A DNA stretch of 64,000 bases from Minutocellus sp. GHC0000111 (taxonomy: Eukaryota), in the NCBI GenBank assembly GCA_977018835.1, contig OZ361257.1, positions 4,092,001 through 4,156,000 on the forward strand, read 5' to 3'. The position numbers were made by a program, and so were the translations under genes. The notes beneath the pieces were generated by a model. The model saw nothing but the letters and a program-made list of their open reading frames with translations. It ran no database searches and was not told where the DNA came from. Shown piece after piece: positions 9,311-42,721 of the stretch (positions are counted from its first letter, which is position 1; the number at the start of each line of letters is the position of its first letter).

Positions 9311-11349
9311 TATGTAGATAGCAATAAGGTATTGGTGTAGTGAATGGACGCGCATGATCCCAAACTATCGTCATGTTGGTAATTTGGACCCTCCAAAAGA
9401 ATAAAACAGGAGACAGTTTGGCCGAACTATCGACCCAACAGCTAGAAGAATGCTACCGGACATCAGCGTGGGTACATACCGTCCGAGTGGAAGCCACGCT
9501 ATCGTCGATTTGGCCTTGATGGGCATGCCTCTTGTGAAAGTGGTATCGCGGTGGAGAAGTTGAGGAGAATTGAGGAGAGTTGGTTTTACTTGTCATTGTG
9601 AGCGAATGCAAGGGGTTGCCAACACAAACTCAACAACCAACACATGCACTTCCGTTCTTTAGTACATACCTTGGCATGGCCGAACGAGAATCATCACCTC
9701 TCTGTCCAATTTCAGGAATTATTGTACCTAATCTGGTTTTAGCGCACGCTCCAACACCGGAAAATTTTCGGCAGATGCACAAAGCCCCAACAAAAAGGTC
9801 CACTTGCTGGCACTCAAACCACAGAAGAAGCACATCAATTGCTCAAGTAGTGTCATGGTAGCGAAATATCAAAAGTTGTATAGACACTCTCAGCGGATTA
9901 ATTCGAGCAATAAGGCCACATCGACATTGGGGACCGTTTTTGCGACGAATGATAATTGTTATTTTCGGGAGGATGAGGTCAGTTTTGCGACTGTTGCGCA
10001 CCCGAACTCGATAACACTGCCATTTCGTCGCCCCTTGCAAGCACCAAACTTGCCTATCATGTCTGCGAAAGTGGGCAATCTCCCATTTGATCGACGAAGT
10101 CGTTACTTTTCTGTGCAATTGTAGCCGTGGTGGAGGTCGAGGTCGGCAGGTGAAAAGTGCTAAAAGTCGATTTTCGTCAAATTCAGGAATGAGAGGCTCA
10201 GAATGAAGCCTCACCGGCCAAGGCATTTATACAGAAAAGAGATGCTGAGTCGAGGATTGTGGTTGCACACCATCTTGGTGGTCCTCTAGGCACAGCATTG
10301 TGATGGTGGAGGGAAATGTGAGAAATGGCACAGAGCCCACGGGCTTCGGGAGATATCCGGGTTATTTTTACTCAAATTTCCGGGTTCTCATCGAGGCACA
10401 ACATGTGTTGAATTGGAAGATACGGCTGGTTCCCACTGTCATTCCTCCTCTGCTGCCGCCCGTTGCCTCCCTCCATAACGCTCCAGCAATGATTGAAATG
10501 AATGACGGGGTAGATGGGCAAGGTAGTGCCATGTCTCACGCCCAAAAGGCAGGCAGGCAAGCAAGCAAGCGACACACAGGACGATGATGAAGAATGAGGC
10601 TGCTGAGCTGGCTGCTGGCACTGAACGAGTTGGCGCCATCATCAGCACGCTCTCCGAGGGCACTTCGTGATTGCTACGAAGTGGAGAGGCCGACAACAGA
10701 CTGGCACCGTCTAACATGCATGTAGATCTTGAATCGAGCACTCAATCTCTGCCGGCACTGCCGGTCGGTGCTAGAGATCTAGACGACGCGCCCATGTCTA
10801 CCACAAGCCAATTTTTATGTTGTTGCCGGTGGGTTTTCATTGTTATTGGAAGAAAGACGAAGCGGTGGCCATTGTAAATCCGTTGTTGCAGGTCTCCCAG
10901 TCTTTTTTCAGCACAAAAAACAAAATGACACCTCATGTAAACATGTGTCTGCATGACAAGTGGCATCAGCTAGCTAGCTAGTAGGATCAAGACATAGCTA
11001 GATCTAGATCTACACATAAGTGCGCATGACTGTTAGATGTCTGCATTGTTATGTAAACTGTTACACAAATGCATGGATCTAACCCAAAATTTCACATTGC
11101 TCTGCACTGTACAACTTGACGGCCAAGTGCATCACTGCGCAACAAGCTTGCGATCATCCCCTTGGCCGAAATCAACAATTCATGTGCGTCCCAGACGTGT
11201 CTCTGCTCTGCACAAAATGACAGCAAGTTCTGGATTCGCCATGTACAAATGCATTGGCAACATCCAATCAGCCAAGATAGGAAGTAAATGCTGCAAGCAC
11301 TTCTCTCCCAGCACAAACAAACCTCATGCACGCCGCTCAAAGCTCAGCG

Positions 11350-11530
11350 TTGTAGTTTGAAGTTGCACTTGTCGACGTATCGGCCGAGAGGGAAGACAAG
11401 ACGCAGGGCGCTTTATGTTTGTGCTCACAGGTTGCGTAAAAAGAAGGAGGACAACCACCCGAAATTCTCTGGACCGGAGGGACAGAAGGTGCACGAGAAA
11501 AGAAATCCCGATGAAGTTCTGTTCTCTGGG
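11350..11530 (+). mobile_element. Internal fragment of mariner-like element B (copy B0)
   Basis: Near-identical to ~18017-18197 (ttgtagtttgaagttgcacttgtcgacg...gttctgttctctggg). Confidence 0.9.
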
Positions 11531-11831
11531 TGGCGACGAATGTGATGACGACTTAGGTGATATGCACTTTGGGGAAAATCCATTCGCCGGTTCCCGCGTG
11601 AGGCAGAGCGGCAACATGGCCAACGATTTGTTTGTCAAGAATCGATGGATGTTTGGAGGTATATTTGGTGGTGCTGAGCAGACGACATCATCGACTAGCA
11701 TTAGCAAGAAGCGCAAGGAGAAGGAGGAGGATGTGGATGAAGAACCGCCAAAGAAGAAGAACAAGAAGAAGAAGAAGAGCAAGAAATCCAAGGGCGGCAA
11801 CACAAAGAAGTGGAATCCAGCCTTGATATGA
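11527..11831 (+). pseudogene. Duplicated last ~100 codons of the MYND/MSS51-like gene (36649-38031)
   Basis: Reverse complement of 36649-36953 (GGDE.DDDLGDM.FGENPF...KKWNPALI) with Y->C and Y->H changes. Confidence 0.9.
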
Positions 11832-12856
11832 ATAAGTAGATTGGGAAATAGTAAAGCGACCAAAACACCGACTTGACCTTTCGCCACAGGGTTCTCTCTT
11901 ACATGTAGGGCATGCAGGTTGCTTTCTCACCACGCACCACCACGGTTGCTATGCTAACGACGCTCCCAATGTCCGAGAAATGATGCGCATGAAAAGCCTC
12001 CCGAACGCCCATCACCAAAAATGGCGGGAGCGGTTTTCGAAGGGCCTCTCCAGCGACTTCCTGACAAAGGCGTGGTGTCAACGGCTCCTTGCATGCAGCC
12101 ACCCGAACCAACGAGCTCCACCATTCCTCCGATTGATCATAAATCAACAACGCATCTCCATCTCAACCAGTCTAATCACAGGAAAGCACGTTTGCCCCAC
12201 TCCAAAAGTGAAAGTAGAAAATGAAGCTTGCAGCCATCCTCCTCCCCGCCATCCTCTTTAGTGTTGGGTTCGCAGCCGAGTACGAGGTCGCGGACAGCAG
12301 CATCAGGGACCCGGTTTTCGGGTCTTTGGGCAAAATCTCATAAAAATCAGCACAAACGCACGCAGCTTGCAGCATTTATTTGCTATCATCCTGTCTTCAA
12401 GATGGCGGTGACGGCAGTGCCGACGGCATCCGCTTCACGCAAGGGACAAGCGTGGTGTCTCCAGAACGGGTTGGTCCTTGACCTTGGACCGACTCGGAGA
12501 TATCGATTTCATCTTCCCATGCCAGCGTCTGGCCGATTCACCCCATCCATCGCCCCTCCCGACTTCTGCCAGTTTTTCCGATGACAACCGGTCACCTCCT
12601 CCACCTCCCGACCCCACCACCACCTCCCAAATGCATTGATTCAAGTAGCCATGTGGTTTGAGCTCCGATGTCGGTCTCCATGGTCCCCATAATGGCGCAT
12701 CTTATGCGGTCCGGGTGACCCCGCGCCAAAATCGAGCGGGCCAAAAAAATCATCACCCGCCCGGCGCGCCCGCCACTCAATGAAACCTTCCTCATTTCCA
12801 ACCCACCCGACACACAAACTGTTGCTCTACTGCCACAAAACACTGCATCCAACACC

Positions 12857-15795
12857 ATGTTAATGCAAATGGCTGTTACTACTGCTGCCACCGCAGCTGA
12901 TGCGCCAGCATGTCGCCGCTCCCGTCGGTCCGGCAGCTCCATCCCATGCTTTGATTATTTTGTCCATCGGAGCGGCACCATCGATGCCTCTACGATTCGT
13001 GGCAAGTCTCCTGGGATGATCCAGACCACAGCGAACCGAGCATGGGCGGGCCTCTCACTTCAGAAACAGCAGGATGTTGTGGAGCAAGCCCGAGAGGAGG
13101 AGCTGTGCTGTCCGAGCCAGACCGGTCCTGATCCGGCACAAGATGTGCCGATTTCTCAAATTCAAATTGCTCGGCGCAATTCGTCATCCAACAACGCCGA
13201 TGCCAGCCCTGAGCCGACGGTCGAGGACAATGCTGGTATCGCTGCTCGTCCTGGTGATGACAACATCGAAGCTGGGGGCATCGCCGAGTCCATGGTGGTG
13301 GATGGAAGCGGCAACAGTGAAGAATCTGGCAATCCTGCCAGTGTCGGTGTTTCTGCTACCGGCACCGCCAATTCTGGTGGATCGACCGAGGAGAATTTGG
13401 ATGTGCTGCTGGTTGAGGCCGAAGCGCAACATGCAAAGCTGCAGAGGAGGCTTTGAAAGGGCTAAGGGACACCTTGAAACGAGAAAAGCGGAAGGATGAA
13501 AAGGCCATGGCCGATGCCGAGAAGAAAAGGAACAAAATGAAGGAGGCGATGCGTCATTTGGAGCAGAGGGTGCAAATGCGTGAACATCTTCGGTCGCACA
13601 GGATGCCGACGGATGCACCACCCGAACGCAAGAAAGCAATGAGAATGGAAGATGACATGCGACCTGCCATCAGTACTGGGGAACATGTCCTTGTGTCTGC
13701 CAACTTCAGTCCCAACATGAATCGGCCTGAGGGTAAGGGATTTGTTATGGTCAGTCGAGGTGTCGGTGGAGGTGCTCTTTGCGATGTCCAGCATGAGAAG
13801 CCTTTTGGTGGCATGATGCATGAGAATGTGCCTCTCAAGGCCATCACCCCGATCCCACTCGGCCTCAACACAGATTCAATTGCCAAGGACAGGCGCAAAC
13901 GGACAGTAGCTGCTCAGGCGGGGATGGATAGCGTTGACAGCGCCGGTGCCAATGAGCGTGCAAAGAGCGATGGCAGTCCGATGGAGACTCTTGTCGGAAA
14001 GCTTTTGCATGGCATGCGATACAGGAAGAAGGATGGATGTCTTCGAAAGGAGGCGAATCGAGCAACCAAAGGCAAGAAGGGATTGAACGACGAGGAGAAG
14101 AGCATGCTTTTTGCCCAGGGATTGCTTCTGGAAGTGCATTTGAAGAGCACCGGCGGGACGCAGCACTCAAGTAGGAACAGTTCATCGCAGAAGTTTCAGT
14201 CGGATGGGAGGGTCACTATTCGTGAGCTCTGCAGATCGTGGGGGAAGGGTAAGAATGGGCTGCGAGACATCCAGAACGAGTCTCGGAAGAATGCCATTGC
14301 CCGGGGCACACCAGCAGATCAGGCCGAGCTTGCATTTGTCACCCCCGCTCCCAAGGATTCGTCGGTTCGGCCAAAGTCTACCATTGACAATTACAAGACG
14401 GCTGAGCAGTACTTTACTGCTAAGCGCCTGTATGCAATCAATAAGTGCAGAGAGGCAAAGGAAGACTGCTATGATTCTGTGTCGAAGGAGGCTGACAATG
14501 AGTTGCTCAAAACGTACCTGACCGAGTGCGACACCATCAGCGACGATGACAAGCAGCTGTGGGAGCTGAAGAGGCGGGAGCACTTGGCAACGCAGCCGTA
14601 CATACAGAACGACATTGTTGCGGCCCTTTCCAGCAATCCTCAGCGATCGTTCCGTGGTTTGGAGCAGGACATTGGTCTGTGGTGCTCGCACAAGACGATT
14701 GAGCGGTGGCTCAAGTCATTCGACACCTTCACTTTCTACAAGGAGCGGCTGGTACCGCGCCTGTCGGAGGCTCAAAAAGCTAAGCATCTGGCCTTTGCTC
14801 AGCTCGTGCGGAATTTCTGGAACATTCGGGATGAGAACGGCAATTTACCGAATGGAAAGAAGCGAGTTCTCCTCGTGCATTACGATGAGAAATGGTTCTG
14901 GGGTCTCGTCCTCCGAGCTTTTGCGAAGGCTTGCGAGGAAATCGGCGTGAAAAAGCGAGATTACGCGGCCTTTCACAGGAGCCACATCAACAAGGTCATG
15001 GCCATTGCATTTGTTGCCGCTGTCTTTGACGGTTCTCTTGAGAATGGGTGCGAGGTTGTAAAACTGCCACTGGTACGAGCTCAAGCTCTTAAAATAGCGG
15101 AGCGAGCTCAGTACGAAGCAGCAACACAGCCTGATGGTTCAATACGGTACCCAAATACCAACCCCGATGGGACACCAAAGGAACCTCTTCGCCGGAAAGG
15201 AGAGTCGTTTCTTGTTTATTGTTGCGTTACTGGATCGAACGAAGGCACCAAAAAGGATCCGAAATGCTCTTTGCTCCTCGTATTCAAGGAGACTATTTTC
15301 CCAGCGATTCTCAACCTTGTCGGTCCGGGCAAGCAATACGAAGATTGCCATGTTATAATCCAGGGCGACCAGGCCGGGCCTCACGAGGACGGAACCTTCA
15401 CGCAATTTGTTACTAACTTCTGTGCTGAGCAAGGCTGGACGTGGCAGCCACAGGCACCGCAGATGCCTCACGCCAACGTCCTTGACTTGAGCGTGTTCCC
15501 CGCGATGAGCCGGCGGCACTCGGAATGGGCACGAAAAATGGTAGGCACCTCCGTCATTTCCACCGACCAGATCTGGGACACTGCCGAGGACGTTTACGAT
15601 AGCATGCCTAACTGCAAAATTGCTTCGGCCTTCATTCAGTACTGGAGGATAATGGGCCTGGTGATTAAGGCCGGTGGTAGCAATGAGTTTGTTGGAAGGT
15701 TGGGTGACGAAAACTTGCACACTGGAATTAGGATCGACTTCAACGAAACGGCCAAGGGGATGGAGCCCTCAGCTCGTCATCCTTCTAATAAATAG
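12857..15795 (+). CDS. Element A transposase (DD38D, plant/oomycete DD39D mariner-related); frameshift at ~13453 joins ORFs 12857-13456 and 13453-15795
   Basis: Motifs HYDEKWFW, IQGDQAGPH and PQAPQMPHANVLDLSVF, with 38 residues between the 2nd and 3rd Asp. Confidence 0.88.
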
Positions 15796-15890
15796 ATAGT
15801 ATTAATATCTTTACACATGTATTAAATAAATGTTACACGTCTACAAATTATTTATAGATCTACATGTAAGATGCAGCAGCATTGGTTTGT

Positions 15891-17033
15891 TTATATCACG
15901 GTGGGCTTCTTTGTTCTTCTATTTCTACCGGTATTCTTTTTTGCCTCCTTGGCCTTCTTATGATCATCAGAAAGCCACACAGCGTGGAGGGACTGACGAA
16001 TCTTTCCGCGCTTCACACCATGTGCATCGGCAAGTTTGTTGTCAGTGAGGGCAGGGTGAGCAGTTGGTTGTTTACTCCCATCCTCATATCCCAACTTATA
16101 TGCATCTAATGCAATCTTGTCAGTAGATAATGCAATAGAGAATTCTATTGTCTTGTTATCATACAATCCGAGTTCTCTGCTTCTCCACCCTTTCGGGTAG
16201 GCACCACAACCCTCTCTTACTTGGCGATCGACTTCGATCATGCCTAGCACTGTGGTGACCGCGACCTCGCTACCCCAACCAGGAACTTGTTTGAAGGGGA
16301 GGTAGACCCCTTTCTCTTTTCTTGGTTCGGGCCTCTGACTACATGTGGGTGACTTGTAGTTCTTTATATCTTGTGGTAGTGGTGCTTCTCCGTACGTCAA
16401 AAAGCACGCAAGCCTCCGATGTTCCTCAACCTCTCGTTCAATGTGTCGTTCGGTTGGTTCGGTTGGTTCGGTTGGAGGCAAGGGCTCCAAGATGGTAGGG
16501 GATGACAATTGAAGGTTGCTGAACGACGGGCATGAGCGGCTTGGGGTAAGAGCATACTGAGTATGAACTGACATTGGACTTGTTACCATGGGCGTGGCGG
16601 AGGGAAGGTCGAATGAGCTCACGGGCTTTCTCCTCTCGCCGCTTGGCTTGGCGTCGGCGGTTGCTATGCTCATCTCTGAGAATGAATCATCTTCATCAGA
16701 ATGAGATGAAACAGTAGCGGTACCGCGAAAGTCGGCACGCAATATGTCATGATGCAAGCACTTCCTTGCTTGGGCTTGTTCGGCGGCGAAGCCATCCTCT
16801 TCGTTGTACTCGCGTCGATATTTCAACACACGAGGAGATGTGAGGTCTGACGATGCCGGTGGGACCCCTTGGTTGTCCTCCTCGTCATCGTTGTCCTTGT
16901 TCTCTCGATACCGCGGATGTTCCGGCGTTTCGTTGGAAGTTTCCTTCTCATGGCGCGAGGGGCTGAATGCAGTCGCCTCGGCGCGTTTCGGTGGACGCGG
17001 TGGACTGAAGATGTGTCCCTTTGGAGTATCCAT
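15891..17033 (-). CDS. Second, convergent ORF inside element A (380 aa, unknown function)
   Basis: ATG at 17033 (MDTPKG...), open in both copies with only in-frame indels. Lies between the transposase stop and the right TIR, sharing an AT-rich 3' spacer. Basic C-terminal tail. Confidence 0.6.
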   Translation of the reverse strand: MDTPKGHIFSPPRPPKRAEATAFSPSRHEKETSNETPEHPRYRENKDNDDEEDNQGVPPASSDLTSPRVLKYRREYNEEDGFAAEQAQARKCLHHDILRADFRGTATVSSHSDEDDSFSEMSIATADAKPSGERRKPVSSFDLPSATPMVTSPMSVHTQYALTPSRSCPSFSNLQLSSPTILEPLPPTEPTEPTERHIEREVEEHRRLACFLTYGEAPLPQDIKNYKSPTCSQRPEPRKEKGVYLPFKQVPGWGSEVAVTTVLGMIEVDRQVREGCGAYPKGWRSRELGLYDNKTIEFSIALSTDKIALDAYKLGYEDGSKQPTAHPALTDNKLADAHGVKRGKIRQSLHAVWLSDDHKKAKEAKKNTGRNRRTKKPTVI

Positions 17034-17251
17034 GAGTATGGAAACTTCTTGAAGCGCCAGTCGGCAGAACTTGCCCAGTCTATTTGTGGTAATTGCTTGG
17101 AGGTCGGTTGTTGACGGATGTGTTTTGATTTGCTTGCTTTGCCGCGTGTTTTTCAAGGTGCGCGCAAACCGCCGTGTCGGAAAGTCCAAAGACCCAAAAA
17201 ACCGGGTCCCCGAAATTGCTGTCCCGGACCTCGTACCTAGGTACCTAGGCA

Positions 17252-20200
17252 CCTTTCGGTTTCAGAGGATTTGTAGAGGGTATACCAATAACCCCTAAAA
17301 AAGGACATTCTTGCACCCATTTCTCATTTCCCACCACGTGTTTTGTTAGTCGACATTCTCTTCGGGAGGAACGCAAATACTCCTCAACTCGTGGATATCT
17401 ACTGGACCTGCTCATTCAGTAGGTTGCCACCGACCAGTAGCATCCACTGAATTCGCAGGTCCAGTAGATTCTGGCAGGAACACACATGTTTTTTGGTCCC
17501 CCGCACACCCTCACCGCAACCCGCAAATTTTGTGACGATGACGACGACCAACCAGACCACGCCCAAAAAATACAAACGCAGCAGAACTTCGTTCTCAGGG
17601 AGCAAGAGAGGCAACACCAAGGCATCCAGGAAGGCGGCAAAGGCGGCAGCTGAGCCGAAAACACCATCGCCGAGCGCAAACACGTCGAAGAAGCGGCCAC
17701 GGACGGTCAAATTCGCCCCCGCCAAACCGTCACCGTCGTCGGCGAAGAAGAGGACGGCCCCTCCTCCTATCCCCATGGCCTTTCTCCTTGCAGCAGATGT
17801 CATTCGAAGGGCTGGTAAGGATCTGTGGTGGAGAGCAACCCCCGATTCCTGCGGCAAAGATGACATTTGTGTTGGTTCTCGGCAGAAATGGGAAGACGTC
17901 CTCCCTGCTTTCATCGAGGCCGACTTGTTGCGTTCCAAGTCCGTCGGTGGAGGAAAGCATGAGCTACAGTACAACGAGGAAAAATGGAAGGATGTGCAGC
18001 AACATCTCAAGGAGCATTGTAGTTTGAAGTTGCACTTGTCGACGCATCGGCCGAGAGGGAAGACAAGACGCAGGGCGCTTTATGTTTGTGCTCACAGGTT
18101 GCGTAAAAAGAAGGAGGACAACCACCCGAAATTCTCTGGACCGGAGGGACAGAAGGTGCACGAGAAAAGAAATCCCGATGAAGTTCTGTTCTCTGGGCGC
18201 TCGACTGTCTTAGCTGCTAAGCTAGGTGAGAGGTTGTCAGCTCACAGAAAGGAGGTGCAGTCAGCGCATTGCGAAGCAAGAGTAAAATCACTAGTCGACG
18301 AGTCCAAGAAACTGGGTTGGATGCCAGCAAGTCTCCTCAGCATGCTGAAAGGAACTGGTGATACTTCCGCCACTGAAGCAGCTGCAGCCTTCCCCAATGA
18401 TAAAGGTTTAGGAGGAGCCGATGCTTCCGTTGTCTGTGCCACCTCCAGTGACATTGATGAACAGGTAAAGGTCGCTCTCGGCCTCGACTTTGTTGTTCGG
18501 ATGGCCAACGATGACATGCTCCGTCCTCCTCGTCCCAATGCAACCGTCACCGAACCAACACCAATCAGAAAAGAAAAGCAGGCGAATGAAAGAATGCGGT
18601 TCAGCGCCGTGGCTCTCGCGGATTGGTGGGGATGCGGCGACCCAACTCGCACGCATGAAGACCGGCAACAAATTGCAACTGCCGCGTGTCGGCAAGTTGC
18701 GTACGATCACGGTTGTGCCAAGTCAACCGGTGGTTCTCAGCTTTACAAGTGGAGAGACCAGCTCTACAAAAGCCTTACTGATGGCATCAGCAATCCCATC
18801 GGCAGAAAGGAGGTTCGTGGAAGGAAGGCACACACGGACATGATCGAGGAGAAGGAGCCAGGATGTCTCCGCGAGCTGTGTCGGCATGCCACTCGGATGA
18901 AGGGTGCGATGGCAACCTTTAAGGAGCTAGCTGACTGTGTGAGAGCGCAAAATCAGCTACTCCAGATGAAGATAGGCTGACAATTAGTCTCCATCGTCTT
19001 CAGCGTTTTCGCTGGTGGAAACAGCAAGGCGGCAAGGAGAAGTCGTCGATCGAGAAGCCGAGGCTCACCCCCGAATGTTGTAGGAAGCGACTTGATTGGA
19101 TCGAAAAGTGGGAGGACATTACGACCGATCCCAACATTCCTGTAGCGTGTCTTGATGAAAAGTGGTTTTACACTGCTACTCGGCGACGAAAGATCAAGAT
19201 GTTGCCACTTTCTGACGAAGAACTAAGCAGTCCGAACCTCGCGTCTGTCCATGCTTCCGAGGCAAGCCCGAAAATTCGATCCAGAAGACACCCTGTCAAA
19301 GTTATGTGTCTTGGAGTTGTTGGCCGACCAATGAAGGATGAAACCAAAGACGTTGATTTCAATGGGCGCATCATGATCAAGAGAGTCGCCAGGGAGCAGA
19401 AGGTGGAAAAGCTTACGCGCAATCAGAATTTCTCTCCAGATGCTAAGGTAACGATGCGCTAAAAAATGACAAAGATTGGCGCGACATTTACGACGAGAAT
19501 GCTGACATGACCGCCGGCCATCTTTGCGACCACATTGCCGAAATCTACGGCCTTTCTGAGTTTGTTACAGAGCGATTGGAACTTCAACACGAGGACTGTA
19601 AATCCGACGGTCAGGCAAAAAGTCGGAAGCATGCCGCTGTTGGCTACAATCAAAAGATCTCGAGTCTCAAGCGACACACTCCTGATAGCAATGGAGAGAA
19701 GGTGAAGGTTGAGATCGACGACCTTGAGCTCGGGGTGCGGCATCAACGGGGCGACAAGGTTACCAAGGACTGTAGCTGCGACTCCAAATGGATGTTGGAG
19801 AGACTGTGTGACTCGAATGAGGTCGGGAAGGCGATTCGAGACGCACATCATTGGGTGAAGTGGGATCCACAAAATATTCAGGAGTCTGATGTTATGTGTC
19901 TTATGATGGACAATGCCGGCGGTCATGGGTCCAATGAAGCAGTTGAGAAGTGCACCGAGGACCTCAAAAACAAACACAAGATTGAGACAATCCAGCAGCA
20001 GGTTCCTCGGTCGCCCGAGACAAATGTTCTTGATCTCGGCATCTGGATGTCTTTGCAGTCGGCCGTCGAAAAGGAGCATCGCGGTCAGAAGAATGATGCG
20101 AATGCTCTTGACAAGACTGTGATGAAAGTATGGGCCAATGTCGCATCAAAAGAGGCCTTTCTCAATGTATTTGGAAAACTTCCAGTGATATATAACAACA

Positions 20201-20712
20201 TCAAGAGAAGTCGTGGCGGTAACAATCTTGTGGAGACCAGACGGGGAAAGGCTGGTCTCGCAAAAATTGCCGAGGAAGAAGCTGAAGAGGATGGTGAACC
20301 ACTCTGGCCAATTGATGCTCCCGGCGAAGATGATGACATTGAGGACGACATAGATGAAAATGATGAAGACGATGGAGTCATTGATTTGCTATAACTTATC
20401 ATAGCATGTCCATTTCTATTCATTACATTTTGATTTGGTGCTTCCCCAAAAATATGTATTTTTTCCCGGGGTGAGGAATGCAAATGTCGAAAAAAATCAT
20501 CACATAATGTACATTTATTGGTTCTGGTGCACAATATCTCTCGACTACATGTAGAAGTTGGTGACCATAACTTGGTTCTTGCCCCGACTTCCATCTTGGC
20601 CGTCATTTATTCCTCGGAGTTAGAAAATGTGAGCTTGGATTTTTGGTCTGGTGTGGTCGTGTTTCTAATACGTCATCATCACGTCACTTTCAAATCCTCT
20701 GAACTCGAAAGG
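17252..20712 (+). mobile_element. Mariner-like element B, copy B1 (3.46 kb, full length, 22-bp imperfect TIRs)
   Basis: Left cctttcggtttcagaggatttg, right caaatcctctgaactcgaaagg followed by TA (20713-14). The left TSD reads CA (17250-51). Confidence 0.92.
17538..20394 (+). pseudogene. Element B transposase (DD39D-type), frameshifted and hypermutated
   Basis: Motifs ACLDEKWFY, KVMCLGVVGRP, MMDNAGGHG and QVPRSPETNVLDLGIW, split over ORFs 17493-18980, 19199-19462 and 19507-20394. Confidence 0.88.
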
Positions 20713-20921
20713 TAGGCCTACCTAGGTACTCAGCGTTGCCTTTGCGATTCCACCACCGAAACTTTTACACCACACCGGCAAGGCGGCGGTGGTCCATTTG
20801 TCTAGCCGCGTCAGTGGCAGCTAGTAGTCAAAAGAATAATGCTGTCGGTACTCCAGATCATAATACTGATGGCCCTCTAGCCGCAACGGAGACCAAGCCA
20901 GCCGCATTAATCCACAGGCAA

Positions 20922-22046
20922 ATGAGTGACCCAACCGGCAGCGGGTATGCGGGCTATCATTTGATGGCAGAGACGGGTGCTCCCGACCATTCACATCGGA
21001 CATTGCCTGCTGCTCAAGCAACAGTCCCACAACACGAGGAATCACCACCAACATCATTCCCCCCTCGATTCGTCGAAATTGGAAGTCCATTCATCCATGC
21101 AGCGGATTATGCCGCGGGGATGGCAATGAGGGATAACGTCGTGCACGCAGTAATGTCTGAACTCAGTCTGGAGGGTAGCAACGAGGAGGGGGCTATGATG
21201 GACCTTGTGGATGAGTTCATACGCGGCATGACAGTTCGGCTGGAGCGCACCGGTTCTCTTGCTAGCGAATCGAGGAACACGAAATCAACATCACGGGCTC
21301 AAATATTGCCAGTTTTGGCCAAAGATGCTCCAGTGATTGCTTCGTGGTATAACGCACATGGCGACAAGGCTTTGTCCTACACCTCCAAAGCATGGAGCGA
21401 TTGGTGGGTGCAACGATGCGGTCATCCAGATGTCGGATGTGAGATGATCAAAGTGGTTGTGTGCGAAGATGGCAATGACGATGTGTGCACACAAGGAGAA
21501 GTCATACTCGGCATTGCCTACGTTGAGCGAACAGTCGTTGATCGGTACCCCATTGATTCGCCCCAAAGTGAAGAGTTATGCGGTGATGATGATGGATCAA
21601 GCTTAATTGGAAAGAAACGAAGAAGGGAAGGAACTGAAAGTATTGCCAATTCACGGATTATTCGCACCACACTTCTGCGAGGAATTCGAATCAACCCAAA
21701 ATACAACCCCGAGGTGACCAGAAGGCTGAGTGGTCTTAGCATCAAAAACAAAGATAGTGTTGCCACTATTGGTGGTATTCCTGGTGCACTCGTCGTCCAT
21801 GTTTTGGAACAGAGCTTGAGGTTTGGTAACGAAGCTGTAGGGGTGCATTGTCCAAAAATTGATTCTGCAGAGGCTTTCTTTCAGGGACTTTTCCAAGGAT
21901 CAAGACAAAGACGGAATAGCACATGCAAGATCACCACCCCAGAAGACGAGGACGGTAGAAAATACTTTCGCTTGTTTGGAGGCAAACGATGGGAAGTGCT
22001 CAGAGCGGCTATTGTGCAACAAATCAGACTAAGCAATCAGAATTAA
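20922..22046 (+). CDS. Hypothetical protein, possible GNAT-fold C-terminal domain
   Basis: 375 codons from the first ATG of a long ORF. The series ILGIAYVER / LLRGIRINPKYN / GGIPGALV / AVGVHC..AEAFF resembles GNAT motif A/B order (inference). Confidence 0.55.
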   Translation: MSDPTGSGYAGYHLMAETGAPDHSHRTLPAAQATVPQHEESPPTSFPPRFVEIGSPFIHAADYAAGMAMRDNVVHAVMSELSLEGSNEEGAMMDLVDEFIRGMTVRLERTGSLASESRNTKSTSRAQILPVLAKDAPVIASWYNAHGDKALSYTSKAWSDWWVQRCGHPDVGCEMIKVVVCEDGNDDVCTQGEVILGIAYVERTVVDRYPIDSPQSEELCGDDDGSSLIGKKRRREGTESIANSRIIRTTLLRGIRINPKYNPEVTRRLSGLSIKNKDSVATIGGIPGALVVHVLEQSLRFGNEAVGVHCPKIDSAEAFFQGLFQGSRQRRNSTCKITTPEDEDGRKYFRLFGGKRWEVLRAAIVQQIRLSNQN

Positions 22047-22365
22047 GAATTTCCTAATAGTGTTATTGTGAATTTATTCTCTTTGTTATCTCTAATCTCT
22101 GCTTCGCCAATACCGATTCACACCGCTTTGTTTCTTCGAACATTTTCGTTCATCTTATGATTCTATAATTCTTCTTCTTCTCTTCTTTATCTATTTCTCA
22201 CATAATTCGGGGCAAGCTACTTTGTATTTGCACCTGTTCGACATATATATTGATTGATCTAATTTTCCAAGAGAGGTCCTAATAGCCTTACCTAGGTAAG
22301 GCTCATCCTCACTGAAAGACCAGCAGAGGCGTCGAAAGAAGACGAAGATTGACTCACCGGCTCGA

Positions 22366-23787
22366 TTGAAGGATCCGGTGCCGACCATTCCGGATCAGTC
22401 GACCATTCCGGCTCGGCAATCGAAATCGTCTGGCCAATTGAGCCGAGCATTTGGTACTTCCATCAATGCCAATCAGCTGCAACCCTTGTCGGCACTAGTA
22501 CCGACCGAGGCACCGACTAAGAAGAGGAAGCCGCCGAGCGCCAGTTCCAGCTCACTGCCGAATGCAGGTGGTTCGCATGCAGCCGACTCTGCATCTGCAT
22601 CGGCTCCCAATGCTAGATCCGATTCGTTGGAAGATCGACGAGCCATTGCCGGTGATGGATCTTCGTCCGTTTTGAACAGAAGTGGCTCCATCGAGACTGA
22701 TGCCAGCACCAAGATTACCTCAGAATCTACTAGCACGATACCGCTACCGAAGCGGGCACGTGACGCTCTCCCTTCCGAGATAGATGATCCCACTCAATTT
22801 GAGTTCGACCCGGCCACTTGGGGCCGAATTCCCACCGACCTCCAACAGTGCCTCGTCAACAAATTCACTGACTCCAATGATCCTTACGGTCTGTCCCTCC
22901 GTTGTTATATTAGGATGCTGGGAAAGTCATTGGACTCGAACGGGCAATGTCCTCTCTATCTTTTGAGACGCAAAAACCTTCGTTTCGGAACCTGGAAAAA
23001 GCGGAAAAGCCTGCTCTACTATGCACCAACTCTACGTCGAGCAAAGGGCAAGAAAGAAACAAAATTGCTGCCAGATTCTGACAATGATGACTTGCAGGGC
23101 TGTTACTTTCCTCAGGTCCTATATTCCAACGGCAAGTATGTGGAATTGACTCTGGCACACACCGACATTGCCTTTCTCGACGGTACGAGGATTAGGGCTT
23201 CGGACATTGCCAAGTTGAGGTCCAAGTTTTTTGTCGATGAGATGAGAATTGATTTCGTTATATGGTCTCGAGATTTTTTCGGTTCATCCATGGCCATTGG
23301 TGATTTCAACCGAAGATGTTTATCTATCAAGCGGAGAGGAAGCTGGCATTTGGTCTCGAACAGTTCAGAATCATTTAGCACTGGCTTTTCGTATACGACG
23401 TACAGCTTTTCCACAAGTGGGGGTGTGTTCATCGATATTTGCGGTGTGTTCATGACACCATTGGTATACAACGGAGGAGCGCCTGCTCTGATTCAATGCG
23501 ATTCAGCATATCTGGTCAACAAAGATAGATCTCGAGAGAAAATGTCGGTGTCGATCCAGGACCGCACAATGAATGGAATGTACGGAGCTGCACGCCCATT
23601 GAACGCATACAAAGACTGGACACTGCCATCCAATGCCTTGAGAGAGAAGCTGGAGGACCTTCCAATGAACGGAATCCGTCCGAGGGATATTCGGGTAGAA
23701 GATGTTATTCTTGATAAAGGAGGTAACTGGCACCCAGGTACACGTCATTATCACCAGGAGGGCATGGACAAGTTAAGCTTAGGTTAG
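22366..23787 (+). CDS. Hypothetical protein (473-aa open frame, no nearby ATG; may continue by frameshift to ~24008)
   Basis: Long ORF with a Ser-rich N-part and globular-looking C-part. No recognised motif. Confidence 0.45.
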   Translation: MKDPVPTIPDQSTIPARQSKSSGQLSRAFGTSINANQLQPLSALVPTEAPTKKRKPPSASSSSLPNAGGSHAADSASASAPNARSDSLEDRRAIAGDGSSSVLNRSGSIETDASTKITSESTSTIPLPKRARDALPSEIDDPTQFEFDPATWGRIPTDLQQCLVNKFTDSNDPYGLSLRCYIRMLGKSLDSNGQCPLYLLRRKNLRFGTWKKRKSLLYYAPTLRRAKGKKETKLLPDSDNDDLQGCYFPQVLYSNGKYVELTLAHTDIAFLDGTRIRASDIAKLRSKFFVDEMRIDFVIWSRDFFGSSMAIGDFNRRCLSIKRRGSWHLVSNSSESFSTGFSYTTYSFSTSGGVFIDICGVFMTPLVYNGGAPALIQCDSAYLVNKDRSREKMSVSIQDRTMNGMYGAARPLNAYKDWTLPSNALREKLEDLPMNGIRPRDIRVEDVILDKGGNWHPGTRHYHQEGMDKLSLG

Positions 23788-24194
23788 AGATCTTATGGCT
23801 GGAGAAAGAAGGCAGCACAAGACGTAGTTGCATCAGTTCGGGCGCGACCAGGCCGATTTCTCAGGAAGGACCCCAAAAGGCGAGAAATCTACTATGATGT
23901 TGGCGACGAGAATGCTCAGAAAGCTGCAGACACGATGATCAACCACTTTGATACAGATGAAAGGAGGAAAGCGAAGGAGAAAGCGGAGGACAGAGGGCTA
24001 CATGGTTGAGCTGAGCTCCCAGAATGGATGATGTGTTTTTCTTTGAGATTTGACCGTTGGTCCTTGTAACAACAATAACCTAACCCCTAACATAACTTTG
24101 CCTTCGGTCCGATCCTGTCCGGCCTGGGCCAAGGATGCACTTGGTGATTATTTGTTCCACTCAGCGATGCTTCCCGGCAGCGGAGAATTCTCCC

Positions 24195-24915
24195 TCAAAC
24201 TTGAGGATTCGATCCAGAGCAGTCTTCAACCCCAAGACGAACCTTATCGCCCTTGCTGGGCGAATCCGTCTGGTACGTGACGCACAAATCCGTGTCGGAA
24301 CGCAGGCGGACAGATCCGTTGGAACCAGTCTTGAACCTCTGCTTGCGCGTCTTCTCGCACTCACGGAGCCTGATGCTGGAACCTTCGTCAATATTCTTCG
24401 GCTCCCAGCTACATTTGGAAATCACGAGAAATAATATAATGATGTGTGGTGAGTATTTCAACAAATATTCAAAATACTAAATTGCAATCATTAGTCAAGC
24501 CAATGAACTTACCACAAGTCATCTCCATCGTCCTCCTCCTTGGCCTTGATGCGTCCCCTGGAATCCTTCTTCCAGAGCTGGTCATCATCGTCCTCATCAC
24601 AATCAACCAGCTTCAGATACTTTCCTTCCTTCGCCTTGCCACCGGAAACACCGACAAAAAGATCATCGTCTTCGTTGAGAATAATGAGCTCATAATCATC
24701 GTCGGAATCATCCGAGTCGTCGGAATCGTCGGAATCGTCCGAGTCATCAGAGCTTGACGACGAATCATCGTCCTTCTTGTAGTGATGATGCGGATTGTGC
24801 AGGTAAAAGGAACATTCATTCGATTAGATGTAAGGTGTGAAGCGTGCATGGCATATCTGCTGCGCCAAGACAAAAACTTACGGTACCACCAAGGTTTCTC
24901 ATCGTACTGGTAAGG
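24195..24915 (-). pseudogene. 5'-truncated ricin-B/beta-trefoil lectin-like gene with Asp/Ser-rich linker and two introns
   Basis: Minus strand reads DDSDDSDD...GKYLKLVDCDEDDDDQLWKKDSRGRIK...DDLC|WEPKNIDEGSSIRLRECEKTRKQRFK...GSVRLRSDTDLCVTY. GTAAGT donors at ~24881 and ~24511. The 5' part is replaced by element B2. Confidence 0.55.
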
Positions 24916-27900
24916 AAAAAGGTCATTCTTGCACCCATTTCTCATTTCCCACCACGTGTTTTGTTAGTCGATATTCTCTTCGGGAGGAACGCAAATGCTC
25001 CTCAACTCGTGGATATCTACTGGACCTGCTCATTCAGTAGGTTGCCACCGACCAGTAGCATCCACTGAATTCGCAGGTCCAGTAGATTCTGGCAGGAACA
25101 CACATGTTTTTTGGTCCCCCGCACACCCTCACCGCAACCCGCAAATTTTGTGACGATGACGACGACCAACCAGACCACGCCCAAAAAATACAAACGCAGC
25201 AGAACTTCGTTCTCAGGGAGCAAGAGAGGCAACACCAAGGCATCCAGGAAGGCGGCAAAGGCGGCAGCTGAGCCGAAAACACCATCGCCGAGCGCAAACA
25301 CGTCGAAGAAGCGGCCACGGACGGTCAAATTCGCCCCCGCCAAACCGTCACCGTCGTCGGCGAAGAAGAGGACGGCCCCTCCTCCTATCCCCATGGCCTT
25401 TCTCCTTGCAGCAGATGTCATTCGAAGGGCTGGTAAGGATCTGTGGTGGAGAGCAACCCCCGATTCCTGCGGCAAAGATGACATTTGTGTTGGTTCTCGG
25501 CAGAAATGGGAAGACGTCCTCCCTGCTTTCATCGAGGCCGACTTGTTGCGTTCCAAGTCCGTCGGTGGAGGAAAGCATGAGCTGCAGCACAACGAGGAAA
25601 AATGGAAGGATGTGCAGCAACATCTCAAGGAGCATTGTAGTTTGAAGTTGCACTTGTCGACGTGTCGGCCGAGAGGGAAGACAAGACGCAGGGCGCTTTA
25701 TGTTTGTGCTCACAGGTTGCGTAAAAAGAAGGAGGACAACCACCCGAAATTCTCTGGACCGGAGGGACAGAAGGTGCACGAGAAAAGAAATCCCGATGAA
25801 GTTCTGTTCTCTGGGCGCTCGACTGTCTTAGCTGCTAAGCTAGGTGAGAGGTTGTCAGCTCACAGAAAGGAGGTGCAGTCAGCGCATTGCAAAGCAAGAG
25901 TAAAATCACTAGTCGACGAGGCCAAGAAACTGGGTTGGATGCCAGCAAGTCTCCTCAGCATGCTGAAGGGAACTGGTGATGCTTCCGCCACTGAAGCAGC
26001 TGCAGCCTCCCCCAATGATGAAGGTTTAGGAGGAGCCGATGCTTCCGTTGTCTGTGCCACCTCCAGTGACATTGATGAACAGGTAAAGGTCGCTCTCGGC
26101 CTCGACTTTGTTGTTCGGATGGCCAACGATGACATGCTCCGTCCTCCTCGTCCCAATGCAACCGTCACCGAACCAACACCAATCAGAAAAGAAAAGCAGG
26201 CGAATGAAAGAATGCGGTTCAGCGCCGTGGCTCTCGCGGATTGGTGGGGATGCGGCGACCCAACTCGCACGCATGAAGACCGGCAACAAATTGCAACTGC
26301 CGCGTGTCGGCAAGTTGCGTGCGATCACGGTTGTGCCAAGTCAACCGGTGGTTCTCAGCTTTACAAGTGGAGAGACCAGCTCTACAAAAGCCTTACTGAT
26401 GGCATCAGCAATCCCATCGGCAGAAAGGAGGTTCGTGGAAGGAAGGCATGCACGGACATGATCGAGGAGAAGGAGCCAGGACATCTCCGCGAGCTGTGTC
26501 GGCATGCTGCTCGGATGAAGGGTGCGATGGCAACCTTTAAGGAGCTAGCTGACTGCATGAGCGCAAAATCAGCTACTCCAGATGAAGATAGGCTGACAAT
26601 TAGTCTCCATCGTCTTCAGCTTTTTCGCTGGTGGAAACAGCAAGGCGGTAAGGAGAAGTTGTCGATCGAGAAGCCGAGGCTCACCCCCGAATGTTGTAGG
26701 AAGCGACTTGATTGGATCGAAAAGTGGGAGGACATTACGACCGATCCCAACATTCCTGTAGCGTGTCTTGATGAAAAGTGGTTTTACACTGCTACTCGGC
26801 GACGAAAGATCAAGATGTTGCCACTTTCTGACGAAGAGCTAAGTAGTCCGAACCTCGCGTCTGTCCATGCTTCCGAGGCAAGCCCGAAAATTCGATCCAG
26901 AAGACACCCTGTCAAAGTTATGTGTCTTGGAGTTGTTGGCCGACCAATGAAGGATGAAACCAAAGACGTTGATTTCAATGGGCGCATCATGATCAAGAGA
27001 GTCGCCAGGGAGCAGAAGGTGGAAAAGCTTACGCGCAATCAGAATTTCTCTCCAGATGCTAAGGTAACGATGCGCTAAAAAATGACAAAGATTGGCGCGA
27101 CATTTACGACGAGAATGCTGACATGACCGCCGGCCATCTTTGCGACCACATTGCCGAAATCTACGGCCTTTCTGAGTTTGTTACAGAGCGATTGGAACTT
27201 CAACACGAGGACCACAAATCCGACGGTCAGGCAAAAAGTCGCAAGCATGCCGCTGTTGGCTACAATCAAAAGATCTCGAGTCTCAAGCGACACACTCCTG
27301 ATAGCAATGGAGAGAAGGTGAAGGTTGAGATCGACGACCTTGAGCTCGGGGTGCGGTATCAACGGGGCGACAAGGTTACCAAGGACTGTAGCTGCGACTC
27401 CAAATGGATGTTGGAGACTATGAATGAGGTCGGGAAGGCGATTCGAGACGCACATCATTGGGTGAAGTGGGATCCACAAAATATTCAGGAGTCTGATGTT
27501 ATGTGTCTTATGATGGACAATGCCGGCGGTCATGGGTCCAATGAAGCAGTTGAGAAGTACACCGAGGACCTCAAAAACAAATATAAGATTGAGATAATCC
27601 AGCAGGTTCCTCGGTCGCCCGAGACATATGTTCTTGATCTCGGCATCTGGATGTCTTTGCAGTCGGCCGTCGAAAAGGAGCATCGCGGTCAGAGAAGAAT
27701 GATGCGAATGCTCTTGACAAGACTGTGATGAAAGTATGGGCCAATGTCGCATCAAAAGAGGCCTTTCTCAATGTATTTGGAAAACTTCCAGTGATATATA
27801 ACAACATCAAGAGAAGTCGTGGCGGTAACAATCTTGTGGAGACCAGACGGGGAAAGGCTGGTCTCGCAAAAATTGCCGACGAGGAAGAAGCTGAAGAGGA

Positions 27901-28321
27901 TGGTGAACCACTCTGGCCAATTGATGCTCCCGGCGAAGATGATGACATTGAGGACGACATAGATGAAAATGATGAAGACGATGGAGTCATTGATTTGCTA
28001 TAACTTATCATAGCATGTCCATTTCTATTCATTACATTTTGATTTGGTGCTTCCAAAACTGTATTTTTCCCCGGGGTGAGGAATGCAAATGTCGAAAAAA
28101 ATCATCACATAATGTACATTTATTGGTTCTGGTGCACAATATCTCTCGACTACATGTAGAAGTTGGTGACCATAACTTGGTTCTTGCCCCGACTTCCATC
28201 TTGGCCGTCATTTATTCCTCGGAGTTAGTTAGAAAAAGTGAGCTTGGATTTTTGGTCTGGTGTGGTCGTGTTTCTAATACGTCATCATCACGTCACTTTC
28301 AAATCCTCTGAACTCGAAAGG
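24916..28321 (+). mobile_element. Mariner-like element B, copy B2 (left TIR missing, right TIR intact)
   Basis: Matches B1 from aaaaagg(t)cattcttgcacc onward. Transposase ORFs 25111-27078, 27123-27728 and 27725-28003, with 39 residues between D2 and D3. Ends caaatcctctgaactcgaaagg followed by CA. Confidence 0.92.
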
Positions 28322-28340
28322 CACCTTGCCGGCAACGGAG

Positions 28341-31234
28341 GCGACATTGGCCCATGCTTTCATTACAGTCTTGTCAAGAGCATTCGCATCATTCGGACCG
28401 CGATGCTCCTTTTCGACGGCCGACTGCAAAGACATCCAGATGCCGAGATCAAGAACATATGTCTCGGGCGACCGAGGAACCTGCTGCTGGATTGTCTCAA
28501 TCTTGTGTTTGTTTTTGAGGTCCTCGGTGCACTTCTCAACTGCTTCATTGGACCCATGACCGCCGGCATTGTCCATCATAAGACACATAACATCAGACTC
28601 CTGAATATTTTGTGGATCCCACTTCACCCAATGATGTGCGTCTCGAATCGCCTTCCCGACCTCATTCGAGTCACACAGTCTCTCCAACATCCATTTGGAG
28701 TCGCAGCTACAGTCCTTGGTAACCTTGTCGCCCCGTTGATGCCGCACCCCGAGCTCAAGGTCGTCGATCTCAACCTTCACCTTCTCTCCATTGCTATCAG
28801 GAGTGTGTCGCTTGAGACTCGAGATCTTTTGATTGTAGCCAACAGCGGCATGCTTCCGACTTTTTGCCTGACCGTCGGATTTGTGGTCCTCGTATTGAAG
28901 TTCCAATCGCTCTGTAACAAACTCAGAAAGGCCGTAGATTTCGGCAATGTGGTCGCAAAGATGGCCGGCGGTCATGTCAGCATTCTCGTCGTAAATGTCG
29001 CGCCAATCTTTGTCATTTTTAGCGCATCGTTGACCTTAGCATCTGGAGAGAAATTCTGATTGCGCGTGAGCTTTTCCACCTTCTGCTCCCTGGCGACTCT
29101 CTTGATCATGATGCGCCCATTGAAATCAACGTCTTTGGTTTCATCCTTCATTGGTCGGCCAACAACTCCAAGACACATAACTTTGACAGGGTGTCTTCTG
29201 GATCGAATTTTCGGGCTTGCCTCGGAAGCATGGACAGACGCGAGGTTCGGACTGCTTAGTTCTTCGTCAGAAAGTGGCAACATCTTGATCTTTCGTCGCC
29301 GAGTAGCAGTGTAAAACCACTTTTCATCAAGACACGCTACAGGAATGTTGGGATCGGTCGTAATGTCCTCCCACTTTTCGATCCAATCAAGTCGCTTCCT
29401 ACAACATTCGGGGGTGAGCCTCGGCTTCTCGATCGACGACTTCTCCTTGCCGCCTTGCTTTTTCCACCAGCGAAAACGCTGAAGACGATGGAGACTAATT
29501 GTCAGCCTATCTTCATCTGGAGTAGCTGATTTTGCGCTCTCACACAGTCAGCTAGCTCCTTAAAGGTTGCCATCGCACCCTTCATCCGAGTGGCATGCCG
29601 ACACAGCTCGCGGAGACATCCTGGCTCCTTCTCCTCGATCATGTCCGTGTGTGCCTTCCTTCCACGAACCTCCTTTCTGCCGATGGGATTGCTGATGCCA
29701 TCAGTAAGGCTTTTGTAGAGCTGGTCTCTCCACTTGTAAAGCTGAGAACCACCGGTTGACTTGGCACAACCGTGATCGTACGCAACTTGCCGACACGCGG
29801 CAGTTGCAATTTGTTGCCGGTCTTCATGCGTGCGAGTTGGGTCGCCGCATCCCCACCAATCCGCGAGAGCCACGGCGCTGAACCGCATTCTTTCATTCGC
29901 CTGCTTTTCTTTTCTGATTGGTGTTGGTTCGGTGACGGTTGCATTGGGACGAGGAGGACGGAGCATGTCATCGTTGGCCATCCGAACAACAAAGTCGAGG
30001 CCGAGAGCGACCTTTACCTGTTCATCAATGTCACTGGAGGTGGCACAGACAACGGAAGCATCGGCTCCTCCTAAACCTTCATCATTGGGGGAGGCTGCAG
30101 CTGCTTCAGTGGCGGAAGTATCACCAGTTCCTTTCAGCATGCTGAGGAGACTTGCTGGCATCCAACCCAGTTTCTTGGACTCGTCGACTAGTGATTTTAC
30201 TCTTGCTTCGCAATGCGCTGACTGCACCTCCTTTCTGTGAGCTGACAACCTCTCACCTAGCTTAGCAGCTAAGACAGTCGAGCGCCCAGAGAACAGAACT
30301 TCATCGGGATTTCTTTTCTCGTGCACCTTCTGTCCCTCCGGTCCAGAGAATTTCGGGTGGTTGTCCTCCTTCTTTTTACGCAACCTGTGAGCACAAACAT
30401 AAAGCGCCCTGCGTCTTGTCTTCCCTCTCGGCCGATGCGTCGACAAGTGCAACTTCAAACTGCAATGCTCCTTGAGGTGTTGCTGCATATCCTTCCATTT
30501 TTCCTCGTTGTACTGTAGCTCATACTTTCCTCCACCGACGGACTTGGAACGCAACAAGTCGGCCTCGATGAAAGCAGGGAGGACGTCTTCCCATTTCTGC
30601 CGAGAACCAACACAAATGTCATCTTTGCCGCAGGAATCGGGGGTTGCTCTCCACCACAGATCCTTACCAGCCCTTCGAATGACATCTGCTGCAAGGAGAA
30701 AGGCCATGGGGATAGGAGGAGGGGCCGTCCTCTTCTTCGCCGACGACGGTGACGGTTTGGCGGGCGAATTTGACCGTCCGTGGCCGGCCGCTTCTTCGAC
30801 GTGTTTGCGCTCGGCGATGGTGTTTTCAGCTCAGCTGCCGCCTTTGCCGCCTTCCTGGATGCCTTGGTGTTGCCTCTCTTGCTCCCTGAGAACGAAGTTC
30901 TGCTGCGTTTGTATTTTTTGGGCGTGGTCTGGTTGGTCGTCGTCATCGTCACAAAATTTGCGGGTTGCAGTGAGAGGGTGTGCGGGGGACCAAAAAACAC
31001 ATGTGTTCCTGCCAGAATCTACTGGACCTGCGAATTCAGTGGATACTACTGGTCGGTGGCAACCTACTGAATGAGCAGGTCCAGTAGATATCCACGAGTT
31101 GAGGAGTATTTGCGTTCCTCCCGAAGAGAATGTCGACTAACAAAACACGTGGTGGGAAATGAGAAATGGGTGCAAGAATGACCTCTTTTAAGGGTTATTG
31201 GTATACCCTCTACAAATCCTCTGAAACCGAAAGG
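28341..31234 (-). mobile_element. Mariner-like element B, copy B3 (inverted, 3'-truncated; duplicate of B1)
   Basis: Reverse complement of 17252-20144. Shares B1's frameshift (LADCVRAQ...) and ERLCDSN/QQQ indels. Confidence 0.92.
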
Positions 31235-31452
31235 TGCCTAGGTACCTAGGTACGAGGTCCGGGACAGCAATTTCGGGGACCCGGTTTTTTGGGTCTTTGG
31301 ACTTTCCGACACGGCGGTTTGCGCGCACCTTGAAAAACACGCGGCAAAGCAAGCAAATCAAAACACATCCGTCAACAACCGACCTCCAAGCAATTACCAC
31401 AAATAGACTGGGCAAGTTCTGCCGACTGGCGCTTCAAGAAGTTTCCATACTC

Positions 31453-32589: not shown

Positions 32590-32684
32590 AAAAACCAATG
32601 CTGCTGCATCTTACATGTAGATCTATAAATAATTTGTAGACGTGTAACATTTATTTAATACATGTGTAAAGATATTAATACTAT

Positions 32685-39152: not shown

Positions 39153-39278
39153 CTACATACTGCGAATGCAGATGAAAACATATAAGCTATGTGCCAGAGT
39201 TATTGTGCTACAGCGAATGCTCAAAGAATCCGGTACTCGGTCAAACTCTAGAGAGATGGAGAGATTGTTACATGTAAA

Positions 39279-42634: not shown

Positions 42635-42721
42635 TTCTACATGTATTCTCTGTCAAAATCTCCCCACACCCCACAAGCACTTCTTCGCTCCACGTTCAAG
42701 TTGACCCCCCTTCGTCGCAAT

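Follow-up and report, generated by a model that had tools for sequence, protein, structure and literature searches.

We analysed a 64,000-nucleotide stretch of contig OZ361257.1 from Minutocellus sp. GHC0000111 (the window), in which two families of Tc1/mariner DNA transposons, elements A and B, have lost TpA dinucleotides to TpG and CpA. The source is a diatom: amid ordinary host genes, the window encodes a diatom pyrenoid shell protein (PF25192, E=1e-49). Self-comparison revealed two copies of element A and three long copies plus one fragment of element B. Element A (12283-17233, plus strand) has TA flanks at 12281-82 and 17234-35, an HTH_Tnp_Tc3_2 domain, and a transposase split over two frames (12857-13453 and 13417-15795); a second long open reading frame (ORF) inside its terminal inverted repeats (TIRs; minus strand, 15891-17261), which codes for 380 aa counted from its first Met, has no Pfam match. 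B1 (17252-20712, plus strand) is complete, with imperfect TIRs and a frameshifted DD39D-family transposase. B2 (24916-28321, plus strand) lacks its left TIR, and B0 (11346-11530, plus strand) is a 185-bp internal fragment. Both families show the features of Tc1/mariner elements, namely a DDxD triad (DD38D in A, DD39D in B2 and its relatives), TIRs and TA flanks. An 8.6-kb inverted duplication (11527-20147 versus 36953-28338, 99.2% identity) contains B3, an inverted, 3'-truncated copy of B (28338-31234, minus strand), and A', an inverted duplicate of A (31253-36197, minus strand). It also joins an intact host MYND/MSS51-like gene (36649-38031, minus strand) to a duplicate of that gene's 3' end and flank (11527-12282, plus strand). 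Both breakpoints lie in or beside B sequence, B0 at one end and B2/B3 at the other, and the duplication may have arisen by aberrant transposition or by recombination between B copies. A second, direct duplication of 10.6 kb (37785-48404 and 53381-64000) is identical over 10,616 bases and extends past the window end; it is either very recent or an assembly artefact.

Families A and B are very abundant. Summed depths of the X1 and X3 read contigs on A and B run from hundreds to about a thousand times those of unique flanks, which we interpret as very high copy rather than as a copy number. The two families also seem to insert next to each other's ends. In the window, A precedes B1 across a spacer of TA-flanked CCTAGG units (17234-17251, plus strand), and in a related locus from another sample (L001, positions 497-589) a single TA separates a B-type right end from an A-type left end, evidence that TA is the genuine target site. 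Both flanks of B1 (17234-17251 and 20713-20730) consist of TA-separated CCTAGG and GGCC units, and CCT plus AGG correspond to the three bases at either end of element B; such units may mark a preferred target or be footprints of excision that have stacked up. At another insertion, an X9 contig has a similar GTAGGCCT flank.

Differences among copies of element B concentrate at TpA. A first-pass annotation of this DNA had proposed that TpA sites in these repeats turn into CA or TG, often in opposite ways in different copies, and every site that it quoted reads as it said. The TAT retained at 11378 in B0 is CAT in B1 (18045) and TGT in B2 (25663), with CA in B3 as well; CAC at 18831 faces TGC at 26449, TGT at 18864 faces CAT at 26482, TAC at 27558 faces TGC at 19951, and TATA at 27582 faces CACA at 19975. 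The target-site dinucleotide is CA to the left of B1 (17250-51) and to the right of B2 (28322-23) and remains TA to the right of B1 (20713-14), and two Tyr codons of the MYND gene read TGT and CAC in its duplicate. The Cys and His residues highlighted in the transposase motifs ACLDEKWF, KVMCLG and VMCLMMDNA stand where all or five of six outgroups have Tyr. Between B1 and B2 we counted 34 substitution events: 15 single TA/CA or TA/TG differences, 5 CA/TG doublets, 3 CG-class differences (one of them adjoins a deletion and is probably misaligned), 4 other transitions and 7 transversions. TA-class changes thus make up 15 of 22 single transitions, compared with 19.6% by chance (P=1e-6). Set against B2, B1 and B3 are patchworks, B3 combining alleles of the B1 type, alleles of the B2 type and some of its own; not every difference between them can therefore be counted as a mutation that arose after the duplication. 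CG, which the annotation saw at none of the sites that it compared, does take part at others: CG-class differences occur at 18273, 19044, 17515, 17656, 16288 and 16890.

Three polarisations place TA at the start of these changes. For the first, we mapped database copies of each transposase onto the codons of the window, using 37 proteins together with B1 and B2 for family B (two duplicates and three divergent or chimeric proteins excluded; clusters represented by up to 15 members each, the largest of them, with 275, included) and, for family A, 59 proteins along with the window copy. Removing columns with fewer than six sequences and residues in poorly matching neighbourhoods left 813 columns for B and 966 for A. 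The 26 outgroup-Tyr columns of B, defined by Tyr in at least four of six outgroups, hold 165 Tyr, 135 Cys, 150 His, 1 Arg and 29 Phe; all of the Phe sit in one column that is Phe throughout the family, and 17 columns contain both Cys and His. In A, 21 outgroup-Tyr columns hold 297 Tyr, 76 His, 50 Cys and 102 Phe, the last nearly all in three Phe columns. With Phe columns set aside, both families together present 462 Tyr, 226 His, 185 Cys, 1 Arg and 1 Phe (875 cells): 411 of 413 non-Tyr residues are Cys or His, which bears out the predicted destruction of Tyr codons in the transposases. Tyr never appears at outgroup-Cys/His columns, in 0 of 270 cells for B and 0 of 887 for A, and few cells of the Arg CGN columns have changed (7 of 704 in B, 3 of 1084 in A). 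Searches for longer homologues of the B transposase found none.

The second polarisation used reads and the third used DNA. We examined 40 of 145 variant places, 36 of them in A or B1, and counted the window allele as derived where it departs from the majority in both X1 and X3 (30 places); six places with intermediate shares, all at TA-class or neighbouring sites, were left out. The 30 polarised places comprise 13 TA>TG or TA>CA changes, 3 CG>CA, 3 other G:C>A:T changes and 11 transversions. All 13 A:T>G:C transitions fall in TpA and none outside it (P=5e-13), and no place shows CA or TG turning into TA (0/30). A scan for DNA copies returned one locus in metagenome_contigs, L001, and none in viral_contigs or genome_contigs. 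L001 is a relative of A with 70% identity and normal composition (TpA observed/expected 0.63; RTAY 1.07, R being a purine and Y a pyrimidine). At its 63 aligned TA sites the window reads CA or TG at 28 and TA at 17; in the opposite direction, 11 of 319 CA/TG sites of L001 read TA in the window (P=1e-16). The window also shows net CpG loss against L001 (53 losses, 26 gains), which indicates that CpG decay and TpA loss both act over long times. The proposed direction, from TpA to TpG or CpA, is therefore upheld by outgroup-Tyr columns, polarised reads and L001 alike, and the ancestral state at these sites is Tyr or TA rather than CG.

The depletion is concentrated in transposons. B copies have a TpA observed/expected of 0.37-0.41 and element A one of 0.28-0.57, compared with 0.58-0.69 in gene-rich stretches. 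RTAY separates them further: it stands at 0.34 across B1, with 0.08 in 18501-19400, at 0.14 in the 5' part of A and 0.51 in its main ORF, and at 0.91-1.06 in gene-rich stretches, with intermediate values of about 0.7 in the non-element stretches 8001-11345 and 20715-24915. As a control we took 36180-53380, which is mostly single-copy with one short repeat included; runs X15 and X11, with little coverage of it, were left out. In X1, transitions to transversions number 158:117 in the control and 105:19 in the elements (P=6e-8), and X3 behaves alike. TA-class changes account for 5 of 24 transitions among 40 of the 360 control places, which are unpolarised and clustered in a few divergent haplotype blocks, and for 17 of 25 among the 36 element places (P=0.0014); CG-class changes account for 10 of the 24 control transitions. 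Three host protein clusters contain a single Tyr/Cys/His column among 111 variable columns, and the MYND pair has 0 of 7. Restriction to transposons, as first suspected, thus holds: single-copy polymorphism lacks a TpA excess and RTAY is near expectation in gene-rich stretches. Within the control, at 41174-41657, lies a repeat of about 480 bp with high read depth, absent or replaced in X1 and X3 contigs and showing mild TpA loss only; it is a small polymorphic mobile element.

Two further mobile families carry the same pattern. In a copia-like cluster, Tyr has become Cys or His in 4 of 9 variable columns, with the window copy retaining Tyr, and P0213 has Cys or His at 4 of 11 columns that are Tyr in its seven relatives. 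Sister mariner families, represented by short contigs from other samples, gave no clear signal, with Tyr/Cys/His columns among variable columns at 2/2 (P0004 set), 2/26 (P0010), 0/4, 0/49, 0/20, 2/38, 1/31 and 0/47; we do not claim the process for them.

Editing depends on sequence context on both sides of the TA. We tabulated 204 strand-site observations as the edited fraction per site, including a few columns fixed for G that may reflect family divergence. Grouped by the 3' base, the edited fraction of A is 0.41 before T, 0.27 before C, 0.10 before A and 0.03 before G, so that TAG is the least edited context and nearly spared; grouped by the base 5' of T, it is 0.37 for A, 0.24 for G, 0.19 for C and 0.12 for T. 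Mean edited fractions are 0.43 for RTAY, 0.18 for YTAY, 0.08 for RTAR and 0.05 for YTAR (TAY versus TAR, P=2e-12; RTAY versus YTAY, P=1e-6), and in both families TAY exceeds TAR and RTAY ranks highest. A +2 base effect was inconsistent between A and B. Both mutated target sites and both MYND sites are RTAY, and the target site retained at 20713 is GTAG. Action on both strands, another element of the original proposal, is evident from the 185 Cys and 226 His at Tyr columns and from RTAY edited fractions of 0.39 on the top and 0.47 on the bottom strand. At codon position 1, where A-majority and G-majority columns were treated separately, A>G is seen in 34 of 65 columns when T precedes, in 10 of 98 when A does and in 3 of 159 when G does.

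Copies differ in how heavily they are hit and where. Load per B copy is overdispersed (93 versus 31 in permutations), and all four Cys/His combinations occur in 45 of 63 testable column pairs, a mosaic to which gene conversion between copies may contribute. Arg turns up just once at a Tyr column, which is what one would predict if editing of one strand abolishes the target. Tyr loss peaks in the middle of B and is low near its 3' end, different copies covering the two parts. B ends are also less TpA-depleted than the middle, and an AT-rich stretch between the two ORFs of A (15796-15900) has kept 17 TA sites (TpA observed/expected 1.22); protection of element ends or AT-rich DNA is possible.

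Taken together, the pattern is a real, directional and transposon-enriched TpA hypermutation. On balance, we think that a host enzyme probably acts on transposon DNA by deaminating the A of its TpA steps, and that this probably serves to defend the genome. Adenine deamination gives hypoxanthine, which is read as G. Transposon chromatin would be marked or recognised, the A of TpA would be turned into hypoxanthine, and replication would fix it as G, leaving TG on that strand and CA on the other. This product would destroy the site and spare the second strand a further hit; single hits would build up over many rounds rather than in one processive sweep, and loss of Tyr and other TA-containing codons would cripple the transposase. 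The process may be a selected defence, or it may be the by-product of a silencing mark. Two outside observations count in favour of adenine deamination: TadA-derived editors favour a pyrimidine before A and disfavour G (bioRxiv 10.64898/2026.07.20.739671), and a TpA-only spectrum has been measured de novo in the chlorarachniophyte Bigelowiella natans (bioRxiv 10.64898/2026.01.13.699255).

Several points weigh against this reading. A>G on one strand is T>C on the other, and sequence cannot tell which base was damaged. The database copies, predicted proteins on long contigs with lengths that recur for the host proteins of the window, probably come from the same assembly as the window and do not amount to an independent genome. 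Engineered TadA enzymes edit A in any context with slight bias only (PMC10085711), which contrasts with the near TpA-exclusivity here. Adjacent mutated Tyr sites show no strand coordination, with 114 same and 114 different in B (31 non-identical copies; permutation mean 112 same, P=0.41) and 21 same and 26 different in A; this does not fit a processive single-strand deaminase, although many superimposed rounds, or gene conversion among copies, could hide strand runs. Some elements are spared: P0014, a relative of B, has 30 Tyr in 769 aa, and the copia-like ORF at 193-2271 has an RTAY observed/expected of 1.23, normal TpA and 28 Tyr, with Tyr>Cys/His changes in three cluster relatives. That ORF has no Pfam hit, and from its motifs we take it to be a copia-like gag-protease; it is probably a young, still unmutated copy. 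Lastly, both families are very abundant, and a defence, if it is one, did not stop their spread.

The lesion might instead fall on thymine. A TET/JBP-type dioxygenase would mark T as 5-hydroxymethyluracil (5hmU) and then 5-formyluracil, which mispairs with G, and T>C at TpA would follow as a by-product of a silencing mark. The final sequences are indistinguishable from those left by A>G, and a standing mark with rare independent errors fits the missing strand coordination. In dinoflagellates, TET/JBP homologues are reported to place 5hmU on repeats, where it silences transposons and favours TA and TC (PMC11572971); that paper does not mention diatoms. TC is not targeted here, since at codon position 2 of family B T>C occurs in just 1 of 55 columns when C follows and in 1 of 59 when T does, and we consider thymine oxidation unlikely.

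Error-prone repair of the polymerase eta type, making A>G errors at WA (W being A or T) in methylated or silenced transposon DNA, is a different route to the same bases. Mutations of A:T pairs are known to concentrate at WA, a preference linked to polymerase eta and to non-canonical mismatch repair (PMC6423074), and AA>AG does slightly exceed GA>GG in our codon-position-1 columns (P=0.006). Per cell, however, AA is hit about 12-fold less than TA (15/2166 versus 117/1369). A transversion is needed for just 1 of the 413 non-Tyr residues at Tyr columns, a narrow outcome for a polymerase with a spectrum broader than A>G, and strand-coordinated tracts are absent. We regard this route as very unlikely.

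Equally hard to sustain is a RIP-like sensing of duplications (RIP, repeat-induced point mutation), perhaps through the diatom methyltransferase DNMT4, driving the reverse change. The duplicate of the MYND gene speaks for it: its changed TA sites, 11542 TA>TG and 11565 TA>CA (2 of 21), are both private to the duplicate. An X1 contig over 36774-37893 departs from the MYND gene only at 36866, 36891 and 37013 and keeps both Tyr codons, which makes TA the original state. At least two of the other differences in the duplicate, 11589 and 11614, are alleles also present in X1 and X3, and two T>C differences (12031 and 12118) lie outside TpA. Both TA changes, however, lie within 40 bp of B0 and are as compatible with spreading from the transposon as with the sensing of homology. 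Elements that are young or in low copy seem to have escaped, as duplication sensing would have it, but the 10.6-kb direct duplication is identical across 410 TA sites and A and A' are identical across a 3.6-kb stretch (12302-15888) with 86, both perhaps too recent and the former perhaps an assembly artefact. We know of no chemistry by which a C5-methyltransferase turns T into C. DNMT4 is related to fungal RID, yet among the species of the Marine Microbial Eukaryote Transcriptome Sequencing Project it is found only in diatoms (PMC9998398), and the main B. natans target is single-copy (bioRxiv 10.64898/2026.01.13.699255).

Ordinary processes (CpG decay from a CG ancestor, RIP-like CA>TA, GC-biased gene conversion or base-calling error) are largely refuted and scarcely credible as the cause: copies do exchange sequence and CpG decay does run alongside the TpA process at a much lower level (3 of 30 polarised places, 10 of 1788 Arg CGN cells, net CG loss against L001), but the ancestor was Tyr or TA and not Arg/CG or Cys/His, biased conversion would not stay within TpA (13/13), and the derived alleles are no long-read miscalls, since the Illumina RNA-seq run X9 carries TG at 13470-71 and CA at 18702 (depth 183 of 557).

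Adenine deamination of transposon DNA, the reading we prefer, has a close precedent. The first-pass annotation knew of no described eukaryotic pathway with this signature, a statement contradicted by the report of Mettrop et al. on B. natans (bioRxiv 10.64898/2026.01.13.699255). In two viral insertions, A>G or T>C changes made up 230 of 231 mutations, and every one of these changes lay at TpA; integrated DNA of nucleocytoplasmic large DNA viruses and virophages was hit and ordinary genes were not. The same preprint reports de novo mutation at roughly 1000 times the background rate, with activity limited to some lines, finds transposon domains enriched among TpA-poor genes and proposes an ADAT2-like deaminase. 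As there, A:T>G:C changes here occur almost only at TpA, on both strands, in mobile or foreign DNA with host genes normal, and TpA hypermutation in the window shares the signature seen in B. natans, with both the lineage and the main target being new. The host here is a diatom, a stramenopile, and the targets are high-copy DNA transposons in place of viral insertions, the larger of which is single-copy; no viral insertion was recognised in the window. Our evidence is comparative, whereas the rate in B. natans was measured de novo. The uneven load among copies is compatible with activity in some lines only. Neither diatoms nor trinucleotide context are mentioned in the text of the preprint (bioRxiv 10.64898/2026.01.13.699255), and our literature searches, which most subscription papers lay beyond, found no diatom report of TpA hypermutation.

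Other systems resemble the process in part. The well-known DNA hypermutation defences, namely RIP, APOBEC and methylation decay, act on cytosine. RIP in Neurospora and other ascomycetes, which is premeiotic and depends on RID, is likewise a dinucleotide-specific transition hypermutation that degrades transposons within the same CA/TA/TG triangle. It proceeds by C>T (PMC7296669) and creates TA, whereas the process here removes TA; in its effect it resembles RIP, from which it is nonetheless distinct. The strand-coordinated runs of APOBEC-like processive deaminases are absent within copies, and the variable sites lack the ancestral CG of CpG methylation decay. Fungal Tad2-Tad3-Ame1 mRNA editing and animal ADAR share the reading of A as G and a strong preference for T/U before A; the former is an ADAT complex redirected to new substrates, with motif TTAGGA (PMC13431901), and the ADAR2 hot spot is UAG (PMC10661471). 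Unlike these RNA editors, the process here changes genomic DNA on both strands of a non-retrotransposing element and edits TAG least. Dinoflagellate 5hmU is similar as a base modification aimed at transposons of an alga of the SAR group (stramenopiles, alveolates and rhizarians), with a preference for TA, but it is described as a silencing mark, extends to TC and, in the part of the source available, comes with no reported mutation signature (PMC11572971).

These comparisons leave room for a broader, more doubtful possibility: that diatoms and chlorarachniophytes share a defence in which a natural DNA adenine deaminase at transposon or viral chromatin edits RTAY singly, possibly in double-stranded DNA. 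We found one published account of an A:T>G:C process aimed at mobile DNA, in a rhizarian alga, and the diatom DNA transposons extend it to a second SAR lineage, one with genetic tools, in which the enzyme is thus findable. The context (RTAY preferred, TAG spared, no strand runs) narrows the candidate enzymes. On the practical side, transposon dating and annotation are biased, and multi-copy transgenes in diatoms may be affected. A natural DNA adenine deaminase, if true, would stand beside RIP and APOBEC as their A-to-G counterpart and, as an adenine base editor provided by nature, would interest base-editor engineers.

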